Below are positions 1,404-20,490 of a stretch of 64,000 bases of DNA, one piece after another. The notes under the pieces are model-generated. The model ran no database searches and was not told the DNA's origin. It saw only the letters and a program-made list of their open reading frames with translations. The DNA comes from Candidatus Thalassospirochaeta sargassi. GTDB taxonomy: Bacteria; Spirochaetota; Spirochaetia; UBA9216. The DNA is taken from NCBI GenBank assembly GCA_028532855.1, contig JAQQAL010000022.1, forward strand, positions 4,844 to 68,843, read 5' to 3'. Numbering within the stretch: position 1 is the first letter of the stretch; each line of letters begins with the position of its first letter. Position numbers and translations under genes: made by a program.

Positions 1404-1534
1404 CATAACAAGCAGTTGGAGCAGTCCTGACTATTGTCACGATTCTGGCAAAGACGTTCGCTGATCGCTCACTCCAGAATCGCGCCAATACCTCGGAAGA
1501 CCTCGGCCGTCAGGCAGCTCAACTGGTCGTTATA
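1404..1534 (+). repeat. Integron attC site 1
   Basis: R''-like cATAACAa at about 1405, an internal gattctgg...ccagaatc hairpin, and the conserved 3' arm cgccaatacctcggaagacctcggccgtcaggcagctcaactggtcGTTATAA. Confidence 0.8.
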
Positions 1535-1592
1535 AATAATAAAGACTTGCGTGTTATAGTAATATATGTTACAGTAAAATATATTACGTTAT

Positions 1593-2939: not shown

Positions 2940-3048
2940 CAAAAGATTTGGAGCAGTCTTAGCTATTGTCACGAAGTTTGCTAATGCAAACTTCCCGCCA
3001 ATGCCCTCGAAGACTCGGGCCGCTAAGCAGCTCAAATCGTCGTTATGT
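2935..3048 (+). repeat. Integron attC site 2
   Basis: TATAACAaaagatttggagcagtcttagc ... gctaagcagctcaaatcgtcGTTATGT. The 5' and 3' arms are reverse complements with bulged bases. The ORF stop TAA overlaps R''. Confidence 0.85.
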
Positions 3049-3079
3049 TTATCGAAAATTTTGGAGAAATTAAAAGTAA

Positions 3080-4153
3080 GTGAATAATACCGATTGGGAT
3101 GAATATGAAAATATAAAAGACAATATCATTTATCTGGATTGGAACATCATTTCTTATTTAAATAAGGGATTGGATCTTCATAATGAAATGGATAGAAAAA
3201 TATATTGTTTATCTTATGTTATGAATAATATTCTTAACCGAAGGAAATGTGTATTCCCGTATAGTAATGGACATTTTTTAGATATAAAAATGGGTTCTGA
3301 TGAATTAATTGATAATTGCTTGCAACAGCTTTTCGATATATCCGGTGGTTGGGAAATATATGAAAACCCAAGAAATCAAGATGAATTAATGATTATTAAA
3401 ACTAATATCCGAGAAAGATATAGGGAATATTCAGACTATCTTGATAAACAGAATGAATATGCAAATAAGAATAAAGTGAATTTAGAAAAATTGATTCAAC
3501 CTTATCGGGATAATGCTAATGTAATTATTGCAAATAATAATCTTAAGAATACAGATGTTGATATGGTGAATAAAGTATTTGATGCATTAATGTACGGTGA
3601 AGATCAATCTCCACAAATTGAAGTCATGAAATTAAACAAGTTTTTAAGAAATATTAAGGGCGAGAAGAAAATCAAATATCCAAATTCATAAAAATGTATA
3701 GAGGATTTTGAAGAAAATAATATAGAAAAAGAATTTGATAAGATGTTTGAAGAAAGTGATTTGCCTTATAGCACATGTGATGATTTTCTTAAGATCATTG
3801 TTGATGTTCCGATATTATCTGAATTTAAGAATAAAATAATTAAATTATGTGCATTGTCAGATATGTTAGGGTTTACATCTGAAAAGACTAAAAAGAAGAC
3901 TTCATTTCAGAGTACAATTAACGATCAGTGTCATCTCTCATATGGATTAAAAACAAAATATTTTGTAACAGAAGATAAGAATCTATATAAAAAGGGGCTT
4001 TTAATAAAAAAATACTTAAAATTAAATGTTGAAGTATTTAAAATTGATGATTTTATAATAAAAATATTAAGATTAATGAAGAAAGATAAGAAAAAAATCG
4101 AGTTGATTGTTAAAAGTGAAAATGGAGATGAAATTTATAGATATGAAGCATGA
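3080..4153 (+). pseudogene. Cassette ORF interrupted by a single in-frame TAA (3689-3691); ORFs 3080..3691 and 3743..4153 share one frame
   Basis: Both ORFs are in frame 2 with no other stop between 3692 and 3743. No attC lies between them. A single attC3 follows the second ORF. Confidence 0.45.
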
Positions 4154-4155
4154 AA

Positions 4156-4272
4156 ACATAACAAGAGATTTGGAGCAGTCTTAGCTATTGTCACGGAAAT
4201 TTTGCTTGCGCAAAATCCGCGCCAATGCCCTCGAAGACTCGGGCCGCTAAGCAGCTCAAATCGTCGTTAAAT
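4156..4272 (+). repeat. Integron attC site 3
   Basis: cATAACAagagatttggagcagtcttagctattgtcacg...cgccaatgccctcgaagactcgggccgctaagcagctcaaatcgtcGTTAAAT. Confidence 0.85.
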
Positions 4273-4370
4273 ACACGAAAAGGGTAAATTATAAAAATGT
4301 TAGGATATTTTTGTTGATGGGTGTAAAATAAAAGGAAGAAATCGCCCGGACCTCCGGCCGACGGGCGATA

Positions 4371-5195
4371 ATGGAATGCTACAATATCTATAGGATTTTA
4401 TATAAAATGTTTTATTTAGGGATAATATTTATTTTCACAATGGCAATATTCTTTAGGATTAAAATTAAAAGGAATAAAACTGTTGATAGTTTTGAGGAAA
4501 AGAACAAATACGATCCTAATTTTTTTACTGAAGATGGGAAGGAGAAGCATATTTTTGAATATATCTTTATTCAGGATAAGTTTCCTGATGAAGGTTCAAT
4601 ATTGATAGAATATAATGAACAAAAAAATCAAATTTATAAAGAGAATAAAGCACGTTATAAGAATATACCAGATGATGAATTACAGTATATAAGTATATTT
4701 GATCTGGAGAAAAATAGTGTAAATGAATTAAAGAATGAAGGAATTGTAAATCCTACATTTATTGGGCGAAAGTATAAAATAGTTAAGAATAAACTACTTA
4801 TTAACGTTTGGGAAATACCATCATTAACCGATTCATTCATCAATGGAAGAAAAGAAAAAGATTTAAAAATTGCTTTAGGAAATCTTATACATAAAAAGTT
4901 GAATATTGATATAGGATTTATTGATGATTTTAGAGGTCCTCTTAGGAAGTATCTTTACTTTCATCAATCAATCCAGACGACTTTTCAGAGTGAATATGGT
5001 ACGCCAATGTTTATTGAGATATTTGGAATAGTTGTGCATGTTAATGGAAAGGATATTATTGATCCTGATATAAAAGAAAATGGATTTCGAAGATCTCTTG
5101 AAGAAGAACTTCCAGGGCCAATTATTATAAGAGTCTTGCAAGCCAATTGGTCAAAAATTAGTTATCCAGGGGTTAATGTTCCATGTTATATGTAA
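4371..5195 (+). CDS. Hypothetical cassette protein with an N-terminal transmembrane anchor
   Basis: 274-aa ORF with a hydrophobic N-terminus (LGIIFIFTMAIFF); followed by attC4. No recognisable domain. Confidence 0.5.
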   Translation: MECYNIYRILYKMFYLGIIFIFTMAIFFRIKIKRNKTVDSFEEKNKYDPNFFTEDGKEKHIFEYIFIQDKFPDEGSILIEYNEQKNQIYKENKARYKNIPDDELQYISIFDLEKNSVNELKNEGIVNPTFIGRKYKIVKNKLLINVWEIPSLTDSFINGRKEKDLKIALGNLIHKKLNIDIGFIDDFRGPLRKYLYFHQSIQTTFQSEYGTPMFIEIFGIVVHVNGKDIIDPDIKENGFRRSLEEELPGPIIIRVLQANWSKISYPGVNVPCYM

Positions 5196-5307
5196 ATACA
5201 ATTGAATATGAAAAATTATAAATATTTAATTTGAATTAATTATATTAGGATATTATTTAAGAAAGAAATCAAGCTTTGACTCCGTCGTACAGCTTGATAA
5301 GAAACGG

Positions 5308-5444
5308 TATTTAACAAGAGATTTGGAGCAGTCTTAGCTATTGTTCACGATTCTGGCGGAGACGTTCGGCTGATCGCCTCTCTCCAGAATCGCGCCAATG
5401 CCCTCGAAGACTCGGGTCGCTAAGCAGCTCAAATCGTCGTTATA
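5308..5444 (+). repeat. Integron attC site 4
   Basis: ATTTAACaagagatttggagcagtcttagctattgttcacgattctggcggagacgttcggctgatcgcc...cgccaatgccctcgaagactcgggtcgctaagcagctcaaatcgtcGTTATAA. Confidence 0.85.
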
Positions 5445-5664
5445 AGTAACCAAGGAATGGGTTTACAAAAGTCTAAGGACATCGTTTACATTTAAGGATG
5501 GAAATGTTTAAGAAGAGATATCAAAAATTATTAATACAGTTGTAATGTTTGTATTGCTTGTAATAGAAATCATTCGTTGTGAGATCTACTTGAGCAAGAA
5601 TAAAGGATAATACAATTATGGGAATCGAGACTTCGTAAAAAAAGATAAGGTTTTGGGTTAGAAA

Positions 5665-6240
5665 ATGATAAGTATAAAATGGGAAGAGATAAAGACAATA
5701 GACCATTCAAAGTATAGGGACTTTGAACGTTTTAGGAATTTTACATTAGCTGAATATGAAAAAGTTAAGAAGGGCTATGTAAACAATGAATGGGTTCTGG
5801 ATTGGAGTAATGATAAACTGAATTGTATTAAAAAAACTGGAGAAATAATATATGAAATAAAATTTACCCATGATGAAAATACTGTTCACATTGAAACAAC
5901 TGATGTAAAAGTGAAGTATGAAGAGGATAAGACAGTATTAAATAATGATAAAGAATACCACCATAGTTTGATACATGATCTTTTTGGATATTTATTAATG
6001 TTTAAAGGTAAAATAAAATTTACTGAAGTAGAAAATATGGTAAAATTTTTCAAAAAATTTGTACTTTTGTATAGAGGTCAAAAGATATTAAAAGTAACTG
6101 ATTTAATGAAGGTTTCTAAAGAAATTACTTGGAAATATCAAATTAATGGAATCGCGTTTTCTGAACCTATTAATCTTAATGGTTATATTAGTGATGAGAC
6201 TAACGAGATTATGTTTACAGCTGAATATCATTTATTATGA
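5665..6240 (+). CDS. Hypothetical cassette protein
   Basis: 191-aa ORF between attC4 and attC5. No recognisable motif. Confidence 0.5.
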   Translation: MISIKWEEIKTIDHSKYRDFERFRNFTLAEYEKVKKGYVNNEWVLDWSNDKLNCIKKTGEIIYEIKFTHDENTVHIETTDVKVKYEEDKTVLNNDKEYHHSLIHDLFGYLLMFKGKIKFTEVENMVKFFKKFVLLYRGQKILKVTDLMKVSKEITWKYQINGIAFSEPINLNGYISDETNEIMFTAEYHLL

Positions 6241-6357
6241 AGAGATGATTATTATGGGGAAGCACAATCTGATGAATGATATTAGTAATGTTAATTGAGA
6301 GAAAAGAAAAGGATAGTTTCAATGATGAAAGAGGTCTATCCTATTTTGGAGAAGTAC

Positions 6358-6497
6358 TTATAACAAGAGATTTGGAGCAGTCTTAGCTATTGTCATGATT
6401 CTGGCAGAGACGTTCCGCGCTGATCGCGCTCCACTCCAGAATCGCGCCAATGCCGCTGAAGACAGCGGCCGCTAAGCAGCTCAAATCGTCGTTATGC
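6358..6497 (+). repeat. Integron attC site 5
   Basis: TTATAACaagagatttggagcagtcttagctattgtcatgattctggcagagacg...cgccaatgccgctgaagacagcggccgctaagcagctcaaatcgtcGTTATGC. Confidence 0.85.
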
Positions 6498-6512
6498 ACC
6501 CGCAGAGCGGGT

Positions 6513-7397
6513 ATGGAAAAAATATCTTTAATAAATTTAATGTTTCAGGTTGCAATAACTGTAAATTTTAAAGATATAGGAGCTAATGGTAATAAAGGTA
6601 AAATAGATTTGGTGAATAAAATGATAAAGTGTACAAATGAAAATAAAAATGAATTACTTACTTTTTTAAAACATAATCCTGCAGAGAATTGTTTCATTAT
6701 AGGTGATTTAGAGAATTACAGTATGGATGAAGAATTCATTGAAATATGGATGATAAGAAAAAAGAAAAATATAACAACCGTATTATTGAGGTTTTATAAT
6801 TACTATACTGTTTCCACCCATGATGAAGATGATATAGAAGAAATTATTAATCATCTAAATGCTGAAAAAGAATTAATAACATTAACTGGCGTAGAATCCG
6901 TGATCGATAAAATCTCGAAAGGAATGGAATTCTCTAAAATTAAAAGAGCAAATTTTGCGGAATTAATAGAAATAAAGAATTATAAAGAAAATTTGCTAAT
7001 TGATATTAAAAAAGCAAATATTGAAGAGATTAATGAATTATTTGAATTCCATAAGAGTATAAAAGAATTTGAAGTAAAAGAAGAAAGCAAAGAAAATTTT
7101 GGAAAAGAATTATTGGATAATACTGGAAGAATTTATTATACAAGAGAAAATAAAAAAATTGTATCGATGGCAATGATAACAGCAGAGAATAGCGTAAATG
7201 GGATGATAATGGGTGTGGCAACAGCCCAAAAATATAGAAGAAAAGGATATGCGAGAGCAATAGTTCAAGAAATATGCAAAAGTATGATTGATAATGGGAA
7301 ATCTGTAGTATTATTTTATGATAATCCAGAAGCAGGGAAAATGTATAAGGAAATTGGATTTGAAGATATAAATCGCCAAGCGACAATATATGCATAA
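6513..7397 (+). CDS. GNAT family N-acetyltransferase, cassette-borne
   Basis: C-terminal GNAT motif A (QKYRRKGYARAIVQEI) with a following YDNPEAGKMYKEIGFE. The track ORF starts at 6450 inside attC5. The start was moved to the ATG at 6513 (MEKISLINL). Confidence 0.7.
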   Translation: MEKISLINLMFQVAITVNFKDIGANGNKGKIDLVNKMIKCTNENKNELLTFLKHNPAENCFIIGDLENYSMDEEFIEIWMIRKKKNITTVLLRFYNYYTVSTHDEDDIEEIINHLNAEKELITLTGVESVIDKISKGMEFSKIKRANFAELIEIKNYKENLLIDIKKANIEEINELFEFHKSIKEFEVKEESKENFGKELLDNTGRIYYTRENKKIVSMAMITAENSVNGMIMGVATAQKYRRKGYARAIVQEICKSMIDNGKSVVLFYDNPEAGKMYKEIGFEDINRQATIYA

Positions 7398-7507
7398 CAA
7401 GCAGTTGGAGCTGTCTTATCTATTGTCACGGAAATTTTGCTTGCGCAAAATCCGCGCCAATACCCTCGAAGACTCGGGCCGCTAAGCAGCTCAACTGGTC
7501 GTTATGT
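7393..7507 (+). repeat. Integron attC site 6
   Basis: cATAACAagcagttggagctgtcttatctattgtcacggaaattttgcttgcgcaaaatccgcgccaataccctcgaagactcgggccgctaagcagctcaactggtcGTTATGT. Confidence 0.85.
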
Positions 7508-7579
7508 TTACATGGAATATATACTATAGTAACGTATAAAAAGCTTGTGAATTATATGATTTACTGGTAAAATGATCAA

Positions 7580-8758
7580 ATGGAAGAATTACTATATCAA
7601 TACAACCCTTGGTGGTCAGACGAATTCGATGTTGAGGATCTAATAATTAGAACCAATTACTTCAACAAATTAAAAAGGAATGTAGAAAATAAATCAATTA
7701 TCTTTCTGACTGGATTAAGAAGAGTTGGGAAGACAACTCTTATGAAATTGTTGATACAAGATTTAATAGAGTCAGGGATAGAAACTAAAAATATATTCTA
7801 TATAAGTTTAGATGATTACGTTTTGATAGATAAACCGTTAAGAGATATTCTTACGGAATATAGAAAGATTCATAAATTATCAATGAAAGATAAGGTGTAT
7901 ATCTTCTTTGATGAAATAACATATTCAAAGGATTATCATCAGCAATTAAAAAATATTTATGATACTCAGAACACTAAAGTGTTTGCTACATCTTCGTCAA
8001 GTTCTTTGTTAAAGGATAAAAAAGCATTTTTAACTGGTAGAGCGATTACATATGAAGTTAAACCACTTGATTTTAATGAATATTTAAAATTTAAGAATAT
8101 AAAAGTGAAAAAGAGTGAAGGATATTTATTAGAAACATATTTTAAAGATTATATGCGAGAAGGCGGAATGCCAGAAAATGTTCTTAATCCTAGTAGAGAA
8201 TATTTAATGAATTTGATAGATGATATAATCCAAAAAGATATAACAGCCTATAATGGTTTAAGAAACCATCAGATTGTCAGGGATTATTATACTTTGTTAA
8301 TGGAGAGAAGTGGAAAGCAATTAAGCATAAATAAAATAGGAAATATTCTGAAACTGTCAGTAGATACAGCACGAAGATATTTGGGGTATTTTGAAGAAAC
8401 TTATTTAATACATTTGTTATCACGGTATGGAAAAACAAATGAAAAATTGCTATCGGCAAAAAAAATATATGCATGTGATCTAGGGATAAAACATCTTTTC
8501 ATAGGTGAAAGAGATTTAGGAAGCTATTTAGAAAATTATATATATCTCAAGATGAGGAATAATAAAGACTTATTTTATTTATATGAAAATGGGAATGAAA
8601 TAGATTTTATTACAAGAGATGGGATATTAATAGAATCAAAATATTTTTCAGAGATGAATGAGAAACAAAAGAAACTATTTGAAGAAACAGAAGCAACTGC
8701 AAAGTATGTTATAGACAATATTAAAAAGCTTGAAATCCTAGAAGAATTCGAAACATAA
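7580..8758 (+). CDS. AAA+ ATPase (COG1373-like, DUF4143-type ATP-binding protein)
   Basis: Walker A FLTGLRRVGKTTL and Walker B VYIFFDEITY; 392 aa; followed by attC7. Confidence 0.7.
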   Translation: MEELLYQYNPWWSDEFDVEDLIIRTNYFNKLKRNVENKSIIFLTGLRRVGKTTLMKLLIQDLIESGIETKNIFYISLDDYVLIDKPLRDILTEYRKIHKLSMKDKVYIFFDEITYSKDYHQQLKNIYDTQNTKVFATSSSSSLLKDKKAFLTGRAITYEVKPLDFNEYLKFKNIKVKKSEGYLLETYFKDYMREGGMPENVLNPSREYLMNLIDDIIQKDITAYNGLRNHQIVRDYYTLLMERSGKQLSINKIGNILKLSVDTARRYLGYFEETYLIHLLSRYGKTNEKLLSAKKIYACDLGIKHLFIGERDLGSYLENYIYLKMRNNKDLFYLYENGNEIDFITRDGILIESKYFSEMNEKQKKLFEETEATAKYVIDNIKKLEILEEFET

Positions 8759-8869
8759 CAAGAGATTTGGAGCAGTCTTAGCTATTGTCATGGAAATTTT
8801 GCTTACGCAAAATCCGCGCCAATGCCCTCGAAGACTCGGGTCGCTAAGCAGCTCAAATCGTCGTTAAAC
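8754..8869 (+). repeat. Integron attC site 7 (last complete site)
   Basis: ACATAACAagagatttggagcagtcttagctattgtcatggaaattttgcttacgcaaaatccgcgccaatgccctcgaagactcgggtcgctaagcagctcaaatcgtcGTTAAAC. Confidence 0.85.
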
Positions 8870-9094
8870 CGCTCAATTCTGTAGATTGCTGTCTATTACT
8901 TTATATTACTTCTATATAAGAAATTAGTCAAATCTTATTGCTCCTGGTTAAGTTGGATTCGGTCTGGTCGCAACTAATTCCTATCACTAACTGCTGTCAT
9001 ATATGTATACACTAATAAGCTTTATTGCTACTTTCTTGTTGGTGCCTATTTTATCATCCTGTTAATGTCTTGTCTTAAAATCATTATATCTTTT

Positions 9095-9122
9095 GGAGGT
9101 TATTTGGCCACCTCTTTTTTTT
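9095..9122 (+). terminator. Putative rho-independent terminator downstream of the cassette array
   Basis: Hairpin GGAGGT-tatttggcc-ACCTCT followed by a T8 run. Confidence 0.35.
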
Positions 9123-9257
9123 CTCAACTGTCAGGTTAATAACCTCACTGTAAACTATTATAACTGTTAAATATTAAAACTATTTTTGTACTAACTAATT
9201 GAATAGTTTCTAATATAACAAAAAAGTATATTTTATTCTTTCTACGTCGGGAATTTT

Positions 9258-10523
9258 TTAAGTATAGGTTTTTACTTTTACTTCATCTATTGTTTCATTT
9301 GTAAAAGGTATTTTAATACTTACTTCAAATCCATTCGATTTTGAAAAAAATATAACATCACCTCTAAGTTGATATTTTACAATATTTTTTACTAATGGTA
9401 ATCCTAATGTTTTAGATTTATCTAAGCTAATAGTGTCTTCACCTCCTTTCCCATTATCAATTATACTAATATATATTTTTTCATCATTCTGATAGCTACA
9501 TTCTATTCTGATATGTATAATTTCTTGACCATAATCAGAGTGCTCAATAGCGTTTAGAATAATTTCATTCATGATAAGTCCAATAGGTATTGATATTTCA
9601 AAAGGGATTTTAATATCAACAACATCTAAAGTCACCAAGACTCTATCACTATTAAGAACATAAGAGCTGTAAATTTCTTTTGTCAAATCATATATATAAT
9701 CTTTCAACGAAATAAATCTCAGATCATTAGCAGCATATAGTTTCTTATGCACAATAGACATTGCGTCCAATCGAGATATTGATTTTTTTAATACTGATTT
9801 AACTTCAGTATTTTCGCTATTCATAATCTGAATGTTTGTTAATGAAGAAATTATTTGCATATTATTTTTTGTTCTGTGATAAAGTTCTTTTAATAAAACA
9901 TCTTTTTCATCTAAAGCTTTTTTTAAAATTTTATTTCTATTAAAAACTTTTTTTTCTAATATAGCGTTATTATTTTCTAATTCCTGCTGTCGTTTATCAA
10001 GAATAAATCTTGTGAATAAATTTGTAATTATAAAAAAAATATTTATAATAAACCATGATATAAAGATATCTTTTGTAATATTTGTTGAAAATATGAATAA
10101 TAGAGATGCAAAAGTAATTTGTAAAATTGTATAAATTATAACTTGTTTTAATTTTAGAAATAAACTTGCAATAAAGATCGTTACGGTAATCCAAACTAAA
10201 GCAGTCATAGAGTTTTTACCAGTTACATCATATTTAAAAACAACTAAATAGCAAACTAGTAAAGTTCCAAAGATTGACATTAAACCACCAATTTTAAAAT
10301 TACGTAGTTTAGCTATTAAGTAACTTATAAAAAAGATTGGCGATCCAATTGTAAGTACTTCAGTTATTCCTGGTGGTGAATGAAATATTCCAATAGTACA
10401 AATAATTGTGTATAGCAATAAGAATAACAAAAGTCCCTTTACTTTATCATATTCTAAAGAACTGTTTGATGAAATATTTGGATAAATTAAAGATTTTATC
10501 AAGTGTAACTTTCGTAGCCTCAT
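9258..10523 (-). CDS. Membrane sensor histidine kinase of HisKA_2 type; orphan, with no adjacent response regulator
   Basis: Five to six N-terminal transmembrane helices. H-box HRTKNNMQIISSL (HisKA_2 family). C-terminal HATPase-like region (NAIEHS...DNGKG). Very AT-rich, like the cassettes. Confidence 0.7.
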   Translation of the reverse strand: MRLRKLHLIKSLIYPNISSNSSLEYDKVKGLLLFLLLYTIICTIGIFHSPPGITEVLTIGSPIFFISYLIAKLRNFKIGGLMSIFGTLLVCYLVVFKYDVTGKNSMTALVWITVTIFIASLFLKLKQVIIYTILQITFASLLFIFSTNITKDIFISWFIINIFFIITNLFTRFILDKRQQELENNNAILEKKVFNRNKILKKALDEKDVLLKELYHRTKNNMQIISSLTNIQIMNSENTEVKSVLKKSISRLDAMSIVHKKLYAANDLRFISLKDYIYDLTKEIYSSYVLNSDRVLVTLDVVDIKIPFEISIPIGLIMNEIILNAIEHSDYGQEIIHIRIECSYQNDEKIYISIIDNGKGGEDTISLDKSKTLGLPLVKNIVKYQLRGDVIFFSKSNGFEVSIKIPFTNETIDEVKVKTYT

Positions 10524-10684
10524 TCTAATTCCTTAGCAGAGTTTATAGGACTTCTTCTTGTTTTTAAAATAATTAAGAAACTATCTGTGTGACTGTAAGA
10601 CTGACATACAAATAGTTTCACATAGAAAAATGCTTTCGTCAAGAAAAATGTTATGTTTTAAAAGATAATAAAAACCTTCTCTTT

Positions 10685-11335
10685 ACCGGCTACCGCCCAT
10701 GAACCTTCTTCCGCATCCAGCCTATAACCCGGCTCACGGACTGCTACCGCAGACCGTCGGCTTCTATCCCGGCAGGGTTGCAAAAACCCGCGCCGAGGAC
10801 GTCGCTCCTGTTTTTGCTCTGCGGCCAATCGCTCCTGTTTCCGGCAACCGCGCTGCCACGCTCTCTTTGCCGGGCCTGCTAATAAAGCCTCTGCCGGCAC
10901 GTGCAGCTGCCGCGCATCCATGCGCGGCAATAAGGGTAAACTTTTCATGTAACTTTACCGGTCCTCATCAAACAGCCGTCCAGTAGAAATCGGGCAGGGT
11001 AGGTAATCTCTTCGTCTTTTCGGGAAGCACAATCAGTGCACTTGTATTAGAGAACCGGAACAGACTACCGGCCGGCTGCTATCTTCGGCCCGATTTTTAC
11101 GGCTTCCATCCGGACCAGCGCTGTTAAGGTAATTTATTGTATTTCTCCCCCCTCCCGTCCCCCCGTTGGGGGGAGCGTCCGGACTCCAGCCGTAAAAAAG
11201 GCCCGCGCAGCCGCCGTGTTTCACACCGCGGCCCCTATACATCATCATAAACCTATTCCCCGATTTGGATTCTTCATCATTGCCCGTCTCCGGCAAAACC
11301 GAAGGCTGTGCCTTCAGTTCAACCTCTGCCACTAA
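10685..11335. other. ~650 bp GC-rich island (~60% GC by eye) in an AT-rich context; probably non-coding, function unknown
   Basis: Composition shifts abruptly. The only ORFs are three mutually overlapping ones on both strands with Arg/Ala/Pro/Gly-rich low-complexity translations. It contains C/G-tract hairpins (tccccccgttgggggga; ggccgcggtgtgaaacacggcggc on the minus strand). Confidence 0.3.
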
Positions 11336-11403
11336 TTCTACACTGATTTATATAATTATCTATGTTTGTGGTATGTTGTAATTAAGAATTTATAATACAT
11401 AAA

Positions 11404-12120
11404 TTAAATCAATCTAACTTCGATATTTTCATTAAGGTAATCTCGCCATCTTTTCCAGTCGGGGTAAACCTTTGTCAGCAGCTTAAAAAAGCGGAGGCTG
11501 TGGTTATGTTCAATTATGTGGCATAGTTCATGGAATATAACGTAATCGATGCATGGTTTCGGTGCTGCTACGAGTTCGGGATTCAGATATATTCTTCCTT
11601 CTTTTGTACAGCTTCCCCAGCGCTTCGGCATTGTTTTAACTTTCAATTCAGGGATATTTATCACTTCGATTACAGAAAATGAGTTAACGCATTTCTGCAT
11701 TCTTTCATAGAATATCTGTCGCCCCTTTTCTTTATACCAATCAAGAAGAAGTTTTTCTTTTTTTTCAATAGTAAAATCTTCAGGTGTTGAAAGGTGGAAT
11801 CTTCCATTTTTTAATTTTACTTCAGGAGGACCGTTAAAAACTTTAAGCCTATATTGTTTCCCGAGATATCTGAACGTTTCTCCGTTATTATATTTTGGTT
11901 TAGGTTGAGCCGGCTGTATACGATCAAATTTGAGTTGTTGTTTATATATCCAGGAAGAACGTTTTCTGACTTTTTCCATTATTTTATCGATCGAAGCATC
12001 TTCCGGTGCTATGACTTCAACATGCTTATCCGGATAAACATGAATTGCAAGCGTTTTCCTGTTCCTGCGGTCGAGATCGAACCGGATTTCAGTTTTACCG
12101 TATCGGACGTTATAGTTCAC
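11404..12120 (-). CDS. YgjP-like (DUF45/M48-like) zinc metallopeptidase; last gene of the type I R-M operon
   Basis: WGSCTKEGRIYLNPELV...DYVIFHELCHIIEHNHS (HExxH). It overlaps the hsdR stop by 11 nt. Confidence 0.85.
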   Translation of the reverse strand: MNYNVRYGKTEIRFDLDRRNRKTLAIHVYPDKHVEVIAPEDASIDKIMEKVRKRSSWIYKQQLKFDRIQPAQPKPKYNNGETFRYLGKQYRLKVFNGPPEVKLKNGRFHLSTPEDFTIEKKEKLLLDWYKEKGRQIFYERMQKCVNSFSVIEVINIPELKVKTMPKRWGSCTKEGRIYLNPELVAAPKPCIDYVIFHELCHIIEHNHSLRFFKLLTKVYPDWKRWRDYLNENIEVRLI

Positions 12121-15100
12121 GATGTTTGGCTATCTCCAGAGATTGTTCGATGATTCGGTCTATTGCGTCATAATCCCATGAAAGGTCATAACGCCCCTTT
12201 ATCTGGAAAAGGTAGTCCTCAATGTCATTAAAAATTTTATTATGCACACTTGAATCATTTATCCAATCCCGCTTCTTGTGTTTATAAATTATATCATCAA
12301 CCTGTTTGGCTACATCCGAAGCAATATAAGCAGGAGTTTTTTCGCAAACCATATCATTCGGTAGTTCTTCAGCAATTAAGCGATAGTAAGGTCTTGCCGA
12401 TTCATGTTTTTTCAGCTCATCGGGAACATCGCTTCCGCCGCTTTCTCTCATCTCGTTCATTGCTTCACGTACTCTATTCAGATACTCGGCGTCCGATAAC
12501 CTCTTCGCTCTATGTTCGGCTATAGCCTCACTTATGATTTCTGATAACCGTTTATAGAGCAGGGGATCTTCCTGCATTTTTTCATGGATGGTTTTCTTCA
12601 TTCTGGAAGCAATTGTATCCGCTTTAGCTGCGTCTCCCTCAATACCTTCAAGTTCTCTTTCAAAGTCATCAATATTAAACAGATCAACGGGCTCTATTAT
12701 ATTTTTCACTTCATCGGCACCGATATATTTATTTACCATATTACGTATTTGTATTTCGTATGAAGAATAATCGACGGTTTCACCGAATCGTTGTTTGATA
12801 GTGTTTCTTAATGAGATGAACATTTTGAGATCGCTTTTATATCTCTCGATTGTATCAGATGAAGTATGTTCAAGAAATGCGGCATTAGAAAGGGCAAGGC
12901 GAAGCGTGTTGAAAAAAATTCTTAATGTTTCATAGAAACGATGCCGCACATCCTCTGGTTCAAGATGAAGCTGCATTGCTTCTGTATCTGTTTTATTGGC
13001 TATTTCAGAAAATATTGCCCAGAGATTGGTATGATACTCATGCAGTTTCGTGATTTCATCGGTTGTAGTAGTTAGTGTTCCGATGATATCTTCACGATCA
13101 AATCCTTTCTCTTCGAGGGTGTTGTAAAGCTCGATGGCCTCGTTGAGCTGTCCGAAAATACCCCTGTAATCAATAATTAAACCGTATTCCTTTCCGTCGT
13201 ATAATCGGTTGACGCGGGCTATAGCCTGTAAAATGTTATGTTCCTTGAGTCTTTTATCAATATAGAGGACCCCGTTTCTCGGTTCATCAAAACCGGTAAG
13301 GAGCTTGTGTATAACAATAATAATTTCAGGATCATCAGAATTGTGAAATCTGTCTATTATCGTATCCTGATAGGCTTTCGGAGTTCCGAATCTGTCCATC
13401 ATTGATTTCCAGAATCTCTGTACTTCAGGTATATTTGATTCGTCAACCTCGCTATGATCGGTTCTTGTATCAGGCGGAGACATAACTATTTCTGTGCTTA
13501 TATCACCAAGCTCATCAAAGCAGTTTTTGTATTTTACCGCCTCCAGTCGTGAAGATACGGCAAATTGTCCTTTCAAACCCGATTTACGAAATTGGCTGTA
13601 GTGCTGAATAATATCATATGTAATCTCTTTAAGCCTATCGTCGGATTTGGTAAGTTCCTCCTCTCGTCTGAACCTTTTTTTCAGATCCAGCTTCTGATCT
13701 TCGGTGAGATCTGATGTTATTCGTTCAAACCATTTGTCTATCTGATTGCGATCCCCCCGCAGTTCGCTCATTCTTCCTTCGTAAATAAGGGGAGTAACCG
13801 CCCGGTCGGCTATAGCCTGATTCATTGTATATGAATGAATAAATCCCCCGAACTTTCTTGCCGTACTTTTTTCATTCCTTAAAAGCGGTGTTCCGGTAAA
13901 ACCGATATAACATGCATTCGGGAAAACCCGTTTCATATTTGCATGTGCAGAACCGTATTGCGAACGATGACTTTCATCCACAAGTACAAATATATTTCTG
14001 CTTTCCGATTTCAGTTTGTTCTTTCTGAGTCCCGCTTCAAATTTATCGATTATTGTCGTGATAATACTTGCCTTGTTCTCTTCAATCAATTTAAAGAGGT
14101 TTTCGCCGCTGGTTGCCCGCTTTACAGCTTTTCCACAGTTCTTGAAGGTTTTATATATCTGATCATCGAGATCAACTCTGTCCGTTACGAGTATAATCCT
14201 CGGATCAATTATCGAACTTTCAAGGCTGATTGCCTTTGCCAGAAGCACCATCGTAATTGATTTGCCAGAACCGGTTGTATGCCATATAACTCCGCCCTGT
14301 CTCGGTAAATCTCCTTTCGCCTTCGTTATTTTTGAAACAGTTTCCTTTACTGCAAAGTATTGCTGGTAGCGGGGAACCTTCTTTATTTTGTTGTCGAAAA
14401 CGACGAATGATTGCGTCAATTCCAGAATACGTTCAATCCGTAATAGGCTGTATATAGTTCTATCCTGCTCAGAAGGTTTTCTGTCGCCGGCATTCCAAAT
14501 CTCCAACATCTTTTGTTTTTGCCAATCAGGTCTTTCGGAAAAAAGATGCGTCAGTGTTGATTCATCAAGTTTTTTATTAATCGAATGATTTAACTTTGTC
14601 TCATCTGTAGAATCGTATTCCTCTCTCCATATGGACCAGAATTTTTCAGGGGTTCCTGCAGTTGCATATGATGCCTGGTTCTGAGCAATGGAAAAAAGGA
14701 GCTGGCTATACACAAAAAGGTGGGGGATTTCATCAACACCCTGATTGCGTATATGCTGGCTGATACCTTCTTTTATAGAATCGGGTTTATCGGGTCTCTT
14801 TGCTTCTATTACGGCGAGCGGAATACCGTTTACAAAAAGCACAATATCGGGCTTTCTTGTTCTCCGGCTGTGTCGCTGTTCGATAATAAACTCATCGCAA
14901 ACATGGAAAACATTATTTTCCGGATTGTCCCAGTCGATGTAATTAAGTGAAAAGCTTTTTGTATATCCTTCAATTGTCTGCTCAAAACTCTTGCCGAGTG
15001 TTATCAGATCATAAATGAGTTCATTCGTAGTAATCAGACTGTCAAACGGAACCTCGCGTATCTCCTGAACTGCCTTTTCAATATTTGATTCAGTAAATTT

Positions 15101-15301
15101 GTGATTTTTTCCTTTAAATGAAAAAGAGTTTATTTTATGAAGCTGTTCTCTGAGTATTTTATCCAGTATCGGTTGATGAAGCCTGCCTCCCCGCATGGAT
15201 TCGCATTCAGAAGGTGTAATATATTCATATCCAAGATTGATAAGCTGTTTGAGTGCCGGGATAAGTGAAATTAGATCTTCCTGATATTCAGAAATTGACA
15301 T
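12110..15301 (-). CDS. hsdR: Type I restriction enzyme R subunit
   Basis: 1063 aa. Helicase motif I TTGSGKS and DEAH-like VLVDESHRSQ. N-terminal nuclease region. Sits in an operon with hsdM and hsdS. Confidence 0.9.
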   Translation of the reverse strand: MSISEYQEDLISLIPALKQLINLGYEYITPSECESMRGGRLHQPILDKILREQLHKINSFSFKGKNHKFTESNIEKAVQEIREVPFDSLITTNELIYDLITLGKSFEQTIEGYTKSFSLNYIDWDNPENNVFHVCDEFIIEQRHSRRTRKPDIVLFVNGIPLAVIEAKRPDKPDSIKEGISQHIRNQGVDEIPHLFVYSQLLFSIAQNQASYATAGTPEKFWSIWREEYDSTDETKLNHSINKKLDESTLTHLFSERPDWQKQKMLEIWNAGDRKPSEQDRTIYSLLRIERILELTQSFVVFDNKIKKVPRYQQYFAVKETVSKITKAKGDLPRQGGVIWHTTGSGKSITMVLLAKAISLESSIIDPRIILVTDRVDLDDQIYKTFKNCGKAVKRATSGENLFKLIEENKASIITTIIDKFEAGLRKNKLKSESRNIFVLVDESHRSQYGSAHANMKRVFPNACYIGFTGTPLLRNEKSTARKFGGFIHSYTMNQAIADRAVTPLIYEGRMSELRGDRNQIDKWFERITSDLTEDQKLDLKKRFRREEELTKSDDRLKEITYDIIQHYSQFRKSGLKGQFAVSSRLEAVKYKNCFDELGDISTEIVMSPPDTRTDHSEVDESNIPEVQRFWKSMMDRFGTPKAYQDTIIDRFHNSDDPEIIIVIHKLLTGFDEPRNGVLYIDKRLKEHNILQAIARVNRLYDGKEYGLIIDYRGIFGQLNEAIELYNTLEEKGFDREDIIGTLTTTTDEITKLHEYHTNLWAIFSEIANKTDTEAMQLHLEPEDVRHRFYETLRIFFNTLRLALSNAAFLEHTSSDTIERYKSDLKMFISLRNTIKQRFGETVDYSSYEIQIRNMVNKYIGADEVKNIIEPVDLFNIDDFERELEGIEGDAAKADTIASRMKKTIHEKMQEDPLLYKRLSEIISEAIAEHRAKRLSDAEYLNRVREAMNEMRESGGSDVPDELKKHESARPYYRLIAEELPNDMVCEKTPAYIASDVAKQVDDIIYKHKKRDWINDSSVHNKIFNDIEDYLFQIKGRYDLSWDYDAIDRIIEQSLEIAKHREL

Positions 15302-15310
15302 TAAAAACTC

Positions 15311-16705
15311 CTATTTATCAATACCATATTTTCTTGCCTTTTCCCAGAATGACCTCTTGCGGCCGTGTTCTGCCTTTATCCTACTGAAATAATCGGCATG
15401 AGATTCGAGATTGTCCGGATACTGAGTAATTCGTTCATCGAGAATAATCAGTTCTCTCAGGTACCCGATGCCGTATTTATATGCTTTAGAATAAGCTCGC
15501 CTTAAAATGTCGTTCAGAAGCGCCCGGTACAATACTACCTGTCCGCATAACGCATTATCTGGTCCGAGCTGCTCGAGGATGTTTAGGATGGATGTGTAGC
15601 CTAATGTCTCGAAATCCGCAGCATCATTTATCAGTCTTTGTTCTGCCTCTGCAATTTTATTCAAATAGAGAAGAACCGGAACTGCCCGCTCAGGCTGGGG
15701 ATCATTAAGGGCTGTTTTTACAGCTTCTGCAAGAATCTTTTTGTGGGTGCCCGGTTCCGCAATTGAATGGTATTCTTTTAAATAATACAGACACGGATTT
15801 TCTTTCCATTTTCTCTCCTGCAAAATACGTAGTTGTTCCGTATCTCCCGTCAACTCAAACAGCTTTTTATATAATTCATCCCTGTCGGAATTAAATCTGA
15901 TTTGCCAGGTTGTTTCCTCGAGTAATTCCCTGGCTTTTTTGAAGTCAGAGAATTGTAGATAGATTTGAATAAGTCTTTTTATCTGAAGATTATTCGGTTC
16001 AGGATTACGAATACGTAAAGCCTCTTCGTAAGCTGCCGGATTATGCATGGCGATAGCGATTTGTTCCATATTTATTTCAAAACCGGCGGCGGTATGATCA
16101 TAGCCTTCGATATTGGAGCAGTCCCAATCAAGCAGTCGGTTTTTATAGATATAGTAAATTTTCTGCAATGAATCAGGAGTAAACAAAATATCCGCAGAGT
16201 TAAGTATCAGCTCCCGGCAGCCGTAATCATTGCCGTCTGCTATATCCATGATTAAGGGAATCCAGTATTCGTCCGCTTTTTTCGTTCCGGCTGCTGCTTC
16301 GAGCCAGAGAATGCAGAATTGATTGAGTTCAGTACCGACTGCGCCTCCACTGTCGTCGACATTTTCGATGATGCTTCCGTCGTTGCGCAATACAAAGTCG
16401 GCCAAGCGCCACGCTTCATCAGGGGCTGAAGGTAGTAGTGTTTCGGTAATTTCTTCGCGAAGGTCTGCAATCTCTTCAGCGAAATCAAAACTGCTGTTGT
16501 AATTTATAAACTGATTTGACTCAATCCAGTTGTTGATCCTTTTTTTAAAGAATGCGGCAACAGTGCTGTAATCATCTTTGTTAAGGCGGTTATCAATGTA
16601 ACTGCTGATTCTTTCATCCTGCTTTTGGTAGATACTCATTATTAGTTCAATGAGTTCGTTTTTTGTCATATCCTCAAGCTTGTTTTTTACTTCTTCAAAA
16701 TCCAT
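15311..16705 (-). CDS. Hypothetical protein embedded between hsdS and hsdR
   Basis: 464-aa ORF, 10-14 nt from each neighbour on the same strand. No recognisable catalytic or NTP-binding motif. Probably helical. Confidence 0.6.
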   Translation of the reverse strand: MDFEEVKNKLEDMTKNELIELIMSIYQKQDERISSYIDNRLNKDDYSTVAAFFKKRINNWIESNQFINYNSSFDFAEEIADLREEITETLLPSAPDEAWRLADFVLRNDGSIIENVDDSGGAVGTELNQFCILWLEAAAGTKKADEYWIPLIMDIADGNDYGCRELILNSADILFTPDSLQKIYYIYKNRLLDWDCSNIEGYDHTAAGFEINMEQIAIAMHNPAAYEEALRIRNPEPNNLQIKRLIQIYLQFSDFKKARELLEETTWQIRFNSDRDELYKKLFELTGDTEQLRILQERKWKENPCLYYLKEYHSIAEPGTHKKILAEAVKTALNDPQPERAVPVLLYLNKIAEAEQRLINDAADFETLGYTSILNILEQLGPDNALCGQVVLYRALLNDILRRAYSKAYKYGIGYLRELIILDERITQYPDNLESHADYFSRIKAEHGRKRSFWEKARKYGIDK

Positions 16706-16719
16706 AAGAATAACCCTGC

Positions 16720-18009
16720 CTAAACCTTCACCCGGATTTCGCCGGTTAGCAGTTTCTGCATAAGGCCGCGTTTTTGGGATTTTATATTCTCTAATGTTTT
16801 TTTTAGGTAACTCAAATCAGCACGGAAGGTTTTTATTATATTTACTATCTCTTGCTGTTCTTTCAAAGGGGGGATTATCAAATTAATTCCATAAAAATCT
16901 GCTTTTGAAATATTAAGCAAGCCATGTGCTCTTGCACCGACCTGAACTCTACCGTTTAGTTCTATATTACAAAGACCAGACTCAAAATACTCATCAATAT
17001 ATGCTAAATTTACATTTGATTCATCTATCGCAAAACATATATATAATGTGGATAAGACACCGGCATCATATTTATCAAGAATCTTTATAGCACCAAAAGG
17101 ATATCCTTTCATTGAACTTCTGTTATATGCAAATTCATTTTTCTTTAATAAATAATAGTTTGAAAGATTTTCTCCGGATACGTTTCTTTTAAAATATTCT
17201 TTCTGGTCTACAAGACCGTTTGTTCCAGATGCCGTTAGTACATGGGAAGATTCGCCATTATTTTTACGTGTGATATCAATAGCAATATCTTTGAGTTTAA
17301 TTTTCTTCCATCCATCTAAAATTATATTATTACTGTTTGTAGGAAAACCAAAACCAGGTAATCTTCTCTTTCCGGTAAAAAGCTCATTCATTAACCCTTT
17401 TTTTCGTTTTTCTTTAAGTTCAATCAGCTTTTCAAGCTTCTCTATTGCCTCATCCCAGGTTGAGAGGATTTCGGCGATCTTTTTCTGTTCGGAGAGAGGC
17501 GGGATTGCTATAATGAAAGCTCTAACATCACCTTTCGTAATATTTGGATCTTTTCTACTGCTTGCGGCATAATTTCTCCAGCGATTTATTTCACCATTTA
17601 GATAATGAAGGAGATACTCTGAATGATGATTTTTACTTGGAAACATTGCCGACAGAGCTTGATTGCATGATGCTCTTTTCTTTAAAATCCCAGTCCGGCC
17701 GATTTGTTTGAATCCACCATACATTGCCACAAAAACAGTATCTATTGGTAAAAGTTTACAAGAACATTCAATTAGAGCAATATCAGTGATGCACTCTTCT
17801 GTATTTACGATTTCACGATTATTTAGATCTGTAGTTTTTACCCATGGATGAATACCATCTTTAAAATAGCGAACGTATTCTCCTCTATAAGGAGTTGTTC
17901 CACTCACAATTTTTGTAACATCCTTTAGTCGTTTTGTATTCCACTCTTCAGGTATCCAGCCAATCTTTGTTTCTTTATACCCGGGGCGTCCTTCGTTTAC
18001 TTTCGTCAT
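16720..18009 (-). CDS. hsdS: Type I restriction-modification specificity subunit with two target-recognition domains (TRDs)
   Basis: 429 aa. Conserved central and C-terminal coiled repeats (SEQKKIAEILS...LMNELFTG ; KEQQEIVNII...LMQKLLTG). Directly abuts hsdM. Confidence 0.85.
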   Translation of the reverse strand: MTKVNEGRPGYKETKIGWIPEEWNTKRLKDVTKIVSGTTPYRGEYVRYFKDGIHPWVKTTDLNNREIVNTEECITDIALIECSCKLLPIDTVFVAMYGGFKQIGRTGILKKRASCNQALSAMFPSKNHHSEYLLHYLNGEINRWRNYAASSRKDPNITKGDVRAFIIAIPPLSEQKKIAEILSTWDEAIEKLEKLIELKEKRKKGLMNELFTGKRRLPGFGFPTNSNNIILDGWKKIKLKDIAIDITRKNNGESSHVLTASGTNGLVDQKEYFKRNVSGENLSNYYLLKKNEFAYNRSSMKGYPFGAIKILDKYDAGVLSTLYICFAIDESNVNLAYIDEYFESGLCNIELNGRVQVGARAHGLLNISKADFYGINLIIPPLKEQQEIVNIIKTFRADLSYLKKTLENIKSQKRGLMQKLLTGEIRVKV

Positions 18010-19554
18010 CTAAAATCCCAACTCTTTCAAATATCCGTTCATCTTTGTTCTTAGCTCGCTGAGTTCTCCCTCAAGCTGCTCTATCTCTTTCTGAACGGCG
18101 GGGATGTCGACCGGTTCTTCCTCTTCGAAGGTATCAACGTAGCGGGGGATGTTCAGGTTGTAATCATTCTCCTGAATCTCTTCCTGTGAGGCAAGGTAGC
18201 TGTATTTATCTTTTGTTTCTCTATTCTTGAAGGTTGAAACGATCTTGTCGATATTTTCGCTTGTTAACCTGTTCTGATTCTTGCTGTTCTGAAATTCTCG
18301 GCTGGCATCAATGAAAAGTATATCCGTTGATTTTCGGTTTCTCTTGAAAACAAGAACGGCTGTTGGAATTCCGGTGCCGTAGAAGAGATTTCCCGGAAGT
18401 CCTATCACGGCGTCGAGCAGGTTCTCTTCAATTAGCTTCTGTCGTATCTTGCCTTCGCTTGCACCCCTGAAAAGTACCCCGTGCGGAACTACGACTCCGA
18501 TTCTGCCGTTTCCCATTGTTATAGTTTCAATCATGTGGCTGATGAATGCATAATCACCCTTTGATTTCGGCGGCAGTCCGCGGTGAAAGCGGTTGTAGGT
18601 ATCAGTCTGTGCTTCTTCAATTCCCCATTTATCAAGAGAGAAGGGCGGATTCGCAACGACAACCTCAAACTTCATGGTTGTATCGTTTTCAAGCAGCTTG
18701 GGACTTCTTATTGTATCTCCCCATTCAATTCTGGCTGAATCCATACCGTGAAGGAACATATTCATCTTGGCAAGTGCCCATGTTGAACCGGTTATTTCCT
18801 GTCCGTACAGAGCGAAATCGTTAGAATCCTTGTTTTTTACCTGATTGCCGCATTTGATAAGTAGGGAGCCTGACCCACAGGCCGGATCGCATATACGCTC
18901 GCCCGGTTTCGGATCAAGCAGTTCCGCGAGCAATTCCGACACCTCCGCAGGCGTATAGAACTCGCCAGCCTTTTTGCCGGCGCCGGCTGCAAATCTTGCA
19001 ATTAAGTACTCATAGGCATTGCCGATAACATCCATGTTACCGGTTTTTGAGGGCCTCAAATCAAGTTTCGGATTATTAAAATCCTCCAACAGGTGCTTTA
19101 ACCTCGCATTACGGTCTTTTGTCTGTCCGAGTGCTGCCTCAGAGTTGAAATCGATATTACGGAAAACCCCCTGAAGCTTCTCCCTGTTGCCTTCTTCTAT
19201 TTGTTCAAGCGCAACATTGATTATTTCTCCAAGGTTGTTTGCCTGACGTTGGGAATACAAATCGTTAAAACTGCACCCTTTGGGAAGTTTGAAGCGTTCG
19301 CGATCCAGTCTACGCCTGATTCGTTCTTCATCATTACTGAATTCTTCTATTAGGCTGTTATAGTGTTCGGTCCAGACATCGGAAATATACTTTAGAAAGA
19401 GCATTACAAGGATGTAGTTTTTATATTCAGAGGCTTCTACAACGCCCCTGAAGGTATCGCATGCCGCCCATAATACTGCCTCGATTTCCTGTTGCTTTGT
19501 TTGTGAATTGTTCTGCATATTATTCCTCATGTCCATAATTTTGATTGCTGCCAA
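18010..19554 (-). CDS. hsdM: Type I R-M N6-adenine DNA methyltransferase subunit
   Basis: Motif I DPACGSGSLL and motif IV VVANPPFS; HsdM N-terminal domain. Confidence 0.9.
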   Translation of the reverse strand: MAAIKIMDMRNNMQNNSQTKQQEIEAVLWAACDTFRGVVEASEYKNYILVMLFLKYISDVWTEHYNSLIEEFSNDEERIRRRLDRERFKLPKGCSFNDLYSQRQANNLGEIINVALEQIEEGNREKLQGVFRNIDFNSEAALGQTKDRNARLKHLLEDFNNPKLDLRPSKTGNMDVIGNAYEYLIARFAAGAGKKAGEFYTPAEVSELLAELLDPKPGERICDPACGSGSLLIKCGNQVKNKDSNDFALYGQEITGSTWALAKMNMFLHGMDSARIEWGDTIRSPKLLENDTTMKFEVVVANPPFSLDKWGIEEAQTDTYNRFHRGLPPKSKGDYAFISHMIETITMGNGRIGVVVPHGVLFRGASEGKIRQKLIEENLLDAVIGLPGNLFYGTGIPTAVLVFKRNRKSTDILFIDASREFQNSKNQNRLTSENIDKIVSTFKNRETKDKYSYLASQEEIQENDYNLNIPRYVDTFEEEEPVDIPAVQKEIEQLEGELSELRTKMNGYLKELGF

Positions 19555-20417: not shown

Positions 20418-20490
20418 GATAAACCTCCGGATAAAAAAACACCCGCCGAATTACGCTTGCAAAGCAGAGGCGCGGCAGGTTTGCTATAAT

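Follow-up and report, generated by a model that had tools for sequence, protein, structure and literature searches.

A GC-rich non-coding island between an orphan histidine kinase gene and a type I restriction-modification module in Candidatus Thalassospirochaeta sargassi

Why should a block of DNA rich in guanine and cytosine (GC), without a recognizable gene, stand in an AT-rich spacer of a spirochaete genome? The block in question, hereafter the island, occupies positions 10685–11335 of a 64,000-nucleotide (nt) stretch of contig JAQQAL010000022.1 (the whole stretch is called the window below). The source is a metagenome-assembled genome (MAG) of “Candidatus Thalassospirochaeta sargassi” (Spirochaetales), in which the NCBI contig measures 249,762 bp. 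From left to right, the locus consists of an integron-type gene-cassette array, a histidine kinase gene, a 160-nt AT-rich spacer, the island, a 68-nt AT-rich spacer, and a defence operon that contains a type I restriction-modification (R-M) and abortive infection (Abi) module and ends, on the island side, with a YgjP-like metallopeptidase gene (Table 1). Our preferred reading, to which we give a probability of roughly 45%, is that the island was acquired recently, as non-coding DNA, from a GC-richer source and is situated at the recombination seam of two mobile modules. According to this reading, foreign GC-rich DNA would have lodged in the AT-rich spacer that separates the array and its low-GC kinase gene from the type I R-M/Abi module. 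Any function of the island would probably be incidental and exerted at the level of DNA or transcription; for example, its first two minus-strand hairpins, with their U-runs, would end transcription of the R-M operon and shield the kinase gene further downstream from it. We favour this reading because the edges of the island are sharp, it lies at a module boundary and a GC step, the compared relatives of its neighbours are without it, its folding is mostly of the Watson–Crick type and nearly symmetric between the strands, and its left third is not significantly structured. The foreign origin, the recency of the acquisition, and the terminator role are what we infer from the observations described below.

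Composition, coding capacity, and known families

The island (651 nt: 129 A, 220 C, 149 G, and 153 T) had the highest GC content (0.567) of any 651-nt window in the 64 kb, where the mean was 0.392 and the standard deviation 0.060; the runner-up, at 0.513, was coding. Within the island, GC content ranged from 0.51 to 0.615 in 200-nt windows and reached 0.647 in the peak 150-nt window. The flanks had values of 0.26–0.32 on the left (10400–10699) and 0.31–0.39 on the right (11300–11899), the remaining intergenic gaps of the window had values of 0.30–0.44, and the transition at each edge of the island took place within ~30 nt. A preliminary description of this DNA had reported a jump to roughly 60% GC in a neighbourhood of 30–42%. 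The jump is real, but the figure fits only the peaks (61–65%), the mean being 57%; likewise, the flanks are indeed AT-richer, but the left side actually has 25–30% GC. At the island, the mean GC content of the locus steps from ~0.30 on the left to ~0.40 on the right, and the cassette array accounts for the low value (30%) over the left 10 kb. The minus strand of the island contains 34% G and 23% C. The tetranucleotide CCGG occurred 13 times, against 3.8 expected, mostly as the stem-forming motifs GCCGG/CCGGC. A role as a sponge for CsrA-type proteins through GGA motifs was considered and rejected, as the minus strand contained 18 such motifs against 17.8 expected.

No convincing coding signal was seen in the island. 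The three mutually overlapping open reading frames (ORFs) mentioned in the preliminary description were confirmed by the ORF listing and by reading the sequence; they lie at 10658–10948 (minus, 96 amino acids [aa]), 10699–10986 (plus, 95 aa), and 11033–11332 (minus, 99 aa). All three would yield products with much Arg, Ala, Pro, and Gly, and none has a Shine–Dalgarno sequence at a usable distance. NCBI annotates the plus-strand ORF as a hypothetical protein, MDC7227008.1, flanked by the kinase MDC7227007.1 and the YgjP-like protein MDC7227009.1. Even with cutoffs as loose as E ≤ 1–10, the six open frames of the island matched nothing in Pfam, NCBIfam, or PADLOC; for the minus-strand frames, which were compared with profile libraries only, no family match was obtained. 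When the 104-aa plus frame (10672–10983) was compared by HMMER with 1.84 billion cluster representatives, only two proteins were returned: the annotated ORF itself (P0241), which forms a singleton cluster among ~15 billion proteins, and a weak match from Actinophytocola oryzae (P0242, TDV48889.1; E = 1.7e−4, 14/37 identities), which was rejected as a homologue because the similarity was judged compositional. In the latter, a hypothetical protein, a 46-aa unit is repeated in tandem; its ORF was probably called over a 138-nt tandem DNA repeat. A 961-aa query concatenated from all six frames found no match among 5.8 billion proteins, but it also missed the known self-match P0241, even though the cluster representative is present there; negatives from concatenated low-complexity queries of this kind were judged untrustworthy, and this one was not counted.

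Codon-phase GC contents across the island were 0.55/0.54/0.61, which is nearly flat and corresponds to weak periodicity, with some phase-specific GC in the stretch 10685–10865. The minus frame at 10661–11347 has only two stops in 229 codons, with the highest GC content (0.61) at its third positions. However, its product looks like translated GC-rich noise, and because one stop is TGA and the other TAA, no single recoding rescues the frame. Judging from its sequence, the annotated ORF (PQJ61_09615) is probably a spurious gene call rather than a gene, which serves as a warning about the annotation.

Known RNA families were searched for with Rfam 15 (4,227 models): a 1.2-kb segment and the island by itself were compared at E ≤ 10, and the whole window at the gathering thresholds. 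No match to the island reached a gathering threshold. The best scores were 10–23 bits, against thresholds of 31–100 (E = 0.15–7), and all belonged to unrelated families (mir-3126, Xoo1, Atu_L1, and CRISPR-DR29), whereas the sole match at the gathering threshold in the whole window was a tRNA-Gln at 49937. ARAGORN found no tRNA or tmRNA in the island. The models for group II intron domain V/VI (RF00029), for D1–D4, and for msr gave no match even at E ≤ 10; the 5′ end of the island minus strand reads GUGGC, compared with GUGYG in group II introns; and Pfam detected no reverse transcriptase among the large ORFs from 28 to 32399 or in the frames of the island. The preliminary description had proposed a group II intron or retron-type remnant and named a cmscan-type search of Rfam as the check. 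With that search run and no family near its threshold, both proposals are unsupported, because none of the 4,227 families matched.

Mobile elements left no clearer trace. Terminal inverted repeats (TIRs) and target site duplications (TSDs) were not found beyond chance (best TIR 15 and best direct repeat 17, against a mean of 15.9 and a maximum of 25 in shuffled sequences), and the island was rejected as a classical insertion sequence (IS) or miniature inverted-repeat transposable element (MITE), as neither feature rose above the shuffled scores. No transposase or transposase fragment was detected in any frame of the island with Pfam, NCBIfam, or PADLOC, and no second copy of the island was present in the window or in 174 kb of related loci.

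The module boundary and the search for relatives

The relatives of the YgjP gene define a boundary close to the right-hand edge of the island. In the closest relatives compared (76%, 72%, and 70% aa identity; nucleotide alignment at 68–76%), no island was present. The alignment to the 76% and 70% relatives stopped within 2 nt of the stop codon, and that to the 72% relative (locus L027) ended ~10 nt before it. Downstream of YgjP, these relatives carried IS elements (DDE_Tnp_1_4, IS21), a dehydrogenase gene, or unrelated ORFs. The island was also absent from 14 distant YgjP loci (JGI). On the other side, the closest relative of the kinase, which was only 46% identical, was preceded by a 198-nt spacer and a divergent chemoreceptor gene, with no island. 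These comparisons place the module boundary at the YgjP stop codon and suggest that the island lies outside the R-M module. The mobility of the module itself is illustrated by an 18,979-bp Logan contig, which carries a YgjP gene product 97% identical to that of the window (P0243) together with HsdR, Abi_2, and half-HsdS at ≥90% (P0243, P0245, P0250, P0252), but no copies at ≥90% of HsdS, HsdM, DUF6880, the kinase, ZnuA/B, or AAA_14. A module with a 97% identical YgjP on a contig without the kinase, ZnuA/B, and AAA_14 indicates that the R-M module moves between contexts, and the gene content of this contig points to module mobility accompanied by swapping of the specificity and methylase genes.

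In the locus of the 72% relative (GCA_054000495.1, JBMXTO010000317.1), a 233-nt GC-rich hairpin-forming spacer with stems of C5/G tracts lies directly past the YgjP stop codon (L027:4718–4950). Its sequence is not related to that of the island. Spacers rich in hairpins may recur at this end of the module.

Relatives of the island itself were sought in several collections. None was found among PLSDB plasmids and INPHARED phages by blastn (word size 11), in IMG/VR with four exact 22–23-mers, or in JGI metagenomes with one exact 26-mer. An exact 22-mer compared with one genome per GTDB species gave a single match, in a Novosphingobium MAG, which was rejected as a homologue, being a 25-nt chance identity in DNA of 63.5% GC. 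The genome, metagenome, and viral searches used exact words, so diverged homologues would escape them. Foreign DNA debris, another of the possibilities raised in the preliminary description, is the one that the context favours, as the island stands at a module seam and is missing from the relatives of its neighbours; its donor was not found.

Folding and the rival origins

The folding of the island was unusual in comparison with shuffled sequences. The whole island had z-scores of −5.3 (plus strand) and −5.4 (minus strand), and on neither strand was any of 20 shuffles as stable. Among 21 length-matched high-GC DNA controls, the mean z-score was −0.38 (standard deviation 1.6; minimum −4.6), and the predicted folding of the island is thus unusual, though not uniquely so. 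Most of the folding signal comes from one 147-nt extended hairpin and a few palindromes. The predicted hairpin consists of the stacked helices GGCTGC/GCAGCC, GGCC/GGCC, TTTTTACGGCT/AGCCGTAAAAA, TCCGGAC/GTCCGGA, and CTCCCCCC/GGGGGGAG, the last spanning 11145–11175; it includes a 22-nt inverted repeat (11094–11115 pairing with 11177–11198) and a 29-nt AT-rich bulge (11116–11144). A covariance model built from this single hairpin sequence and run over 174 kb recovered only itself. According to the base-pair probabilities, the helices of the right half carry no more than one G-U pair each, while the left half has a few long-range helices that form on the minus strand only and depend on G-U pairs. 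Further hairpins lie close to both ends (10736–10757 and 11297–11319), and the perfect palindrome at 10908–10929 could function by forming a hairpin or by binding a dimeric protein. Watson–Crick folding that is equally good on both strands is what palindromes at the DNA level give. The fold and the inverted repeats confirm the G/C-tract hairpins mentioned in the preliminary description, whose general picture of a non-coding, GC-rich, hairpin-rich island without an annotation-level explanation was borne out.

Candidate signals for transcription were also present at the right-hand side. Two candidate terminators lie 85–210 nt past the YgjP stop codon, on the strand of the R-M operon. The hairpin at 11290–11319 resembles, as folded, an intrinsic terminator of that operon; a consensus scan missed it because it is followed by only four U, and the scan reported a single weak site, on the plus strand (11074–11090). 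The second candidate, at 11194–11233, overlaps the base of the 147-nt hairpin, and the two pairings would therefore be alternatives. A sigma-70-like promoter match (11335–11362) points into the island; promoter-like sites numbered 5 against 2.1 ± 1.4 expected, and this site is weak evidence, as such matches are common in AT-rich DNA.

How does the island compare with known systems? Base-composition screens by Klein, Misulovin, and Eddy in 2002 are said to have found that GC-rich islands mark structural RNA genes in AT-rich genomes. The present island is similar in its sharp intergenic GC peak, its want of a coding signal, its folding beyond that of shuffled sequences, and the excess of G over C on one strand; however, those islands proved to be conserved RNA genes, whereas here no homologue, covariation, or Rfam match was obtained, and the present host has ~40% GC and is presumably mesophilic. 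Intrinsic terminators and the hairpin-rich spacers of mobile operons provide a second parallel, with two GC-rich stems followed by U4 and U6 on the R-M strand within 210 nt, and with the comparable GC-rich hairpin spacer after YgjP in L027. In contrast to the island, known terminators measure 30–60 nt rather than 650; the consensus scan flagged neither candidate; and the 147-nt hairpin has its U-run on the 5′ side and an A-run on the 3′ side, which is the wrong way round. Elements derived from IS200/IS605, and repetitive extragenic palindromic (REP) units or bacterial interspersed mosaic elements (BIMEs), share with the island the lack of TIRs and TSDs, sub-terminal hairpins, long palindromes, and an IS-prone site, but the island is single-copy in the window, has no transposase remnant, gave no omega-RNA or IS605 match in Rfam, and is far longer than REP units. 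Its long, near-perfect hairpin resembles the msd stem of a retron msr-msd RNA, and its size is similar to that of an ORF-less group II intron; there is, however, no reverse transcriptase nearby, no match to domain V/VI, D1–D4, or msr, and GUGGC in place of GUGYG. Like an ORF-less integron cassette, it is a non-coding segment beside a cassette array, but it lies 1.8 kb past the last attC-like repeat, with an opposite-strand gene in between and no attC bounding it. As far as its sequence can tell, the island lacks the features that define group II introns, retrons, integron cassettes, and classical IS/MITEs; by analogy, it behaves like the GC islands that flag RNA genes and like the terminator spacers that end mobile operons.

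Several observations weigh against recently acquired foreign DNA. No donor sequence was found, so the argument for a foreign origin is one of composition, and the homologue searches were shallow (exact 22-/26-mers, four viral patterns, and blastn to plasmids and phages only). The island (z = −5.3) folds better than all 21 high-GC controls, the minus strand gives the more stable fold in three of its four sub-segments, and that strand alone offers the G-U pairs on which several long-range helices of the left half rely. Structured RNAs usually contain more G than C, as does the minus strand of the island, and a promoter-like site is aimed into it. Furthermore, 650 nt is more than two terminators require. 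The points concerning strand, G excess, fold, and promoter suit an RNA gene equally well or better, and an undescribed, lineage-restricted structured RNA gene, of ~650 nt or a shorter length around the 147-nt hairpin, is the main rival, a possible though unlikely explanation. Such an RNA would lie on the minus strand, with its transcription starting from the match at 11362–11335, and would be co-oriented with the R-M operon and the kinase gene. The classic association of structural RNAs with GC-rich islands in AT-rich genomes (reportedly seen in the screens mentioned above), the whole-island z-scores that no shuffle equalled and no control reached, the more negative local z-scores on the minus strand (−5.5 vs −4.5, −2.7 vs −2.3, and −3.4 vs −1.9), the minus-only G-U helices, which close a multi-branch left domain, the 34% G against 23% C, the promoter-like −35/−10 pair at the right edge, and the lack of coding signal all agree with it. 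Yet none of the 4,227 Rfam families matched; the exact-word and plasmid/phage searches found no homologue that would show covariation or conservation; and the island is missing 3′ of the closest R-M relatives and 5′ of the closest kinase relative. In addition, two terminator-like hairpins fall inside the first 140 nt of the proposed transcript, the left 150 nt are not significantly structured, the asymmetry between the strands is small overall with mostly pure Watson–Crick helices, and one of the 21 control pieces also reached z = −4.6. The structured RNA of the preliminary description therefore keeps its folding beyond shuffles and its non-coding sequence, but most of the signal lies in one long Watson–Crick hairpin, and homologues were not found. 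In a more specific form, a new, narrowly distributed minus-strand RNA of ~650 nt with the 147-nt rod-like hairpin as its predicted core, located at the 3′ flank of the R-M/Abi module near the integron array, we consider the proposal less likely still; such an RNA might be a defence- or mobility-associated non-coding RNA. If the RNA explanation were true, the island would represent a new class of large non-coding RNA in Spirochaetota, linked to a defence island, for which the support so far is thermodynamic.

The same sharp edges without TIRs or TSDs could also be those of a relic or non-autonomous mobile element at an insertion hotspot, such as a palindrome-associated element of the IS200/IS605 type or the non-coding end of an IS91/ISCR- or IS110-type element. 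The sub-terminal hairpins near both ends, the IS elements just 3′ of YgjP in the relatives, an IS3-family element in the same defence cluster, and the CCGG excess (13 vs 3.8) are consistent with such an origin, but we regard it as improbable: no frame contains a transposase or a fragment of one, the window and the compared loci hold no second copy, Rfam gave no IS605- or omega-RNA-type match, and the singleton status of the annotated ORF among 15 billion proteins speaks against a widespread multi-copy element. An assembly artefact, likewise raised in the preliminary description, in which a GC-rich fragment of another organism from the enrichment culture was stitched into the contig, is more improbable than this. 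The source is a MAG and the island stands at a GC step, and the independent Logan contigs of run SRR22388478, which equal positions 7465–8780, 8837–10596, and 11579–21280 of the window at 100% identity, stop at 10596 and 11579 and leave 10597–11578 (the island and the last 58 ygjP codons) unconfirmed; neither the three island ORFs nor the predicted 67-aa tail fragment of YgjP had an exact record in Logan contigs. Repeats of attC k-mers within the window account for the contig ends at 7465, 8780, and 8837 but not for those at 10596, 11579, and 21280. Both flanks, matched by the contigs at 100%, are therefore genuine and occur together in a single sample. On the other hand, the break at 21280 also lacks a repeat to explain it, so such breaks are not peculiar to the island. 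An insertion would need two false joins, both leading back to adjacent positions of the same genome, while De Bruijn assemblers follow only the k-mers of reads, so the junctions should exist in molecules. The window is free of N, and 11404–11578 encodes the correct YgjP C-terminus (97% identical to P0243), which shows the right-hand continuation to be genuine. Finally, one or more small orphan proteins, such as the annotated 95-aa ORF, or a decayed minus-strand pseudogene would account for the NCBI annotation, for the scarcity of stops and the GC-rich third positions of the minus frame, and for the phase-specific GC in 10685–10865. This is hardly credible, as ribosome-binding sites are missing, the Arg/Gly/Pro/Ala-rich translations resemble low-complexity sequence, the profile libraries contained no family, HMMER returned only the self-match and the weak P0242, long open frames are expected on both strands at 57% GC, and the two stops of the minus frame differ. 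If, as we prefer, the island is acquired foreign DNA, it marks the place where an integron array, an orphan kinase gene, and an R-M defence module were joined, and it adds one more case of foreign non-coding DNA trapped between mobile modules.

The cassette array and neighbouring genes

The features of the locus are collected in Table 1. The integron-type gene-cassette array to the left of the island fills positions 1–8870 and is not annotated; it is the most valuable by-product of the analysis. It contains seven attC-like structured repeats of 115–140 nt, each located 3′ of a plus-strand ORF or ORF pair, and its cassettes encode an ion-channel fragment, a DUF234 ATPase, a GNAT protein, an AAA_14/DUF4143 protein, and several unknowns. 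The repeats start at a TAACAAG-like motif and finish at a CGTCGTTA-like motif. Compensatory changes occurred between the copies, and the bottom strand folded better than the top strand (z = −3.1 vs −1.3). Based on the seven copies, a covariance model recovered exactly those seven (115–141 bits) and no others in the window. No integrase gene was found in the 64-kb window; either the gene would precede position 1, or the array is an integrase-free attC cluster, known as a CALIN.

Table 1. Positions of the island, its parts, and its neighbours in the window (z, folding z-score).
Feature	Position	Strand	Remarks
GC-rich non-coding island	10685–11335		56.7% GC; sharp compositional edges; single occurrence in window
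Sub-segment of island	10705–10854		z minus −0.6, z plus −1.1; not significant
Sub-segment of island	10850–10965		z minus −2.7, z plus −2.3; includes palindrome 10908–10929
Sub-segment of island	11070–11216		z minus −5.5, z plus −4.5; 0/200 shuffles as stable
Sub-segment of island	11190–11335		z minus −3.4, z plus −1.9
Predicted 147-nt extended hairpin	11070–11216	−	Almost purely Watson–Crick, ~36–39 bp
Perfect 10+10 nt palindrome, TGCCGCGCAT-CC-ATGCGCGGCA	10908–10929
Terminator-like hairpin, AACUGAAGGC-ACA-GCCUUCGGUU then UUUUG	11290–11319 (stem 11319–11297)	−	85 nt past YgjP stop
Terminator-like GC-rich hairpin, GGCCGCGGUGUGAAACACGGCGGCUGCGCGGGCC then U6	11194–11233 (stem 11233–11200)	−	Predicted
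Sigma-70-like promoter match, TAGATA, 16 nt, TAGAAT	11335–11362	−	In AT-rich spacer, directed into island
95-aa ORF, “hypothetical protein” MDC7227008.1 (PQJ61_09615)	10699–10986	+	No family; 1-member cluster; probably spurious
AT-rich spacer, kinase start codon to island	10524–10684		Imperfect 43-nt hairpin at 10577–10619; kinase ribosome-binding site
AT-rich spacer (68 nt), island to YgjP stop codon	11336–11403		Closest YgjP relatives without same sequence
Membrane HisKA_2/HATPase histidine kinase, left neighbour	9258–10523	−	25% GC
YgjP-like metallopeptidase, last gene of type I R-M/Abi module	11404–12120	−	Similarity of relatives ends at stop codon
attC-like repeats	1403–1536, 2934–3049, 4156–4273, 5309–5446, 6358–6498, 7392–7508, 8753–8870
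Last attC-like repeat, array end	8753–8870	−	1.8 kb left of island

No attC bounding the island was detected when the attC model was run with filters off over 8880–11600, where the best match scored 9 bits. Both the island as an integron gene cassette, which would need an attC at its 3′ end, and the kinase gene plus the island as an extra cassette were rejected, as no attC is present. The motif GTTATGTTT occurs at 10650–10658, 30 nt to the left of the island, and equals the R′ core plus downstream bases of two of the attC copies, those near 3045 and 7504. The site has neither an attC-like fold nor an R″ partner, and the motif is probably a chance occurrence in AT-rich DNA.

To the right of the island, the minus-strand defence cluster at 11404–22794 comprises genes for the YgjP-like peptidase, HsdR, DUF6880, HsdS, HsdM, Abi_2, and a 192-aa half-HsdS. 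Beyond the half-HsdS gene lies a plus-strand ORF with a SMODS domain (21270–22064), the 3′ end of which is overlapped by an IS3-family transposase ORF (21967–22794); this arrangement suggests a gene of the cyclic oligonucleotide-based antiphage signalling system (CBASS) type that was disrupted by an IS. Farther to the right, an EncFtn-like/rubrerythrin ORF followed by a Linocin_M18 encapsulin shell gene (31202–32399) forms the gene pair of a ferritin-type encapsulin nanocompartment, which adjoins genes for a peroxiredoxin and an alcohol dehydrogenase.

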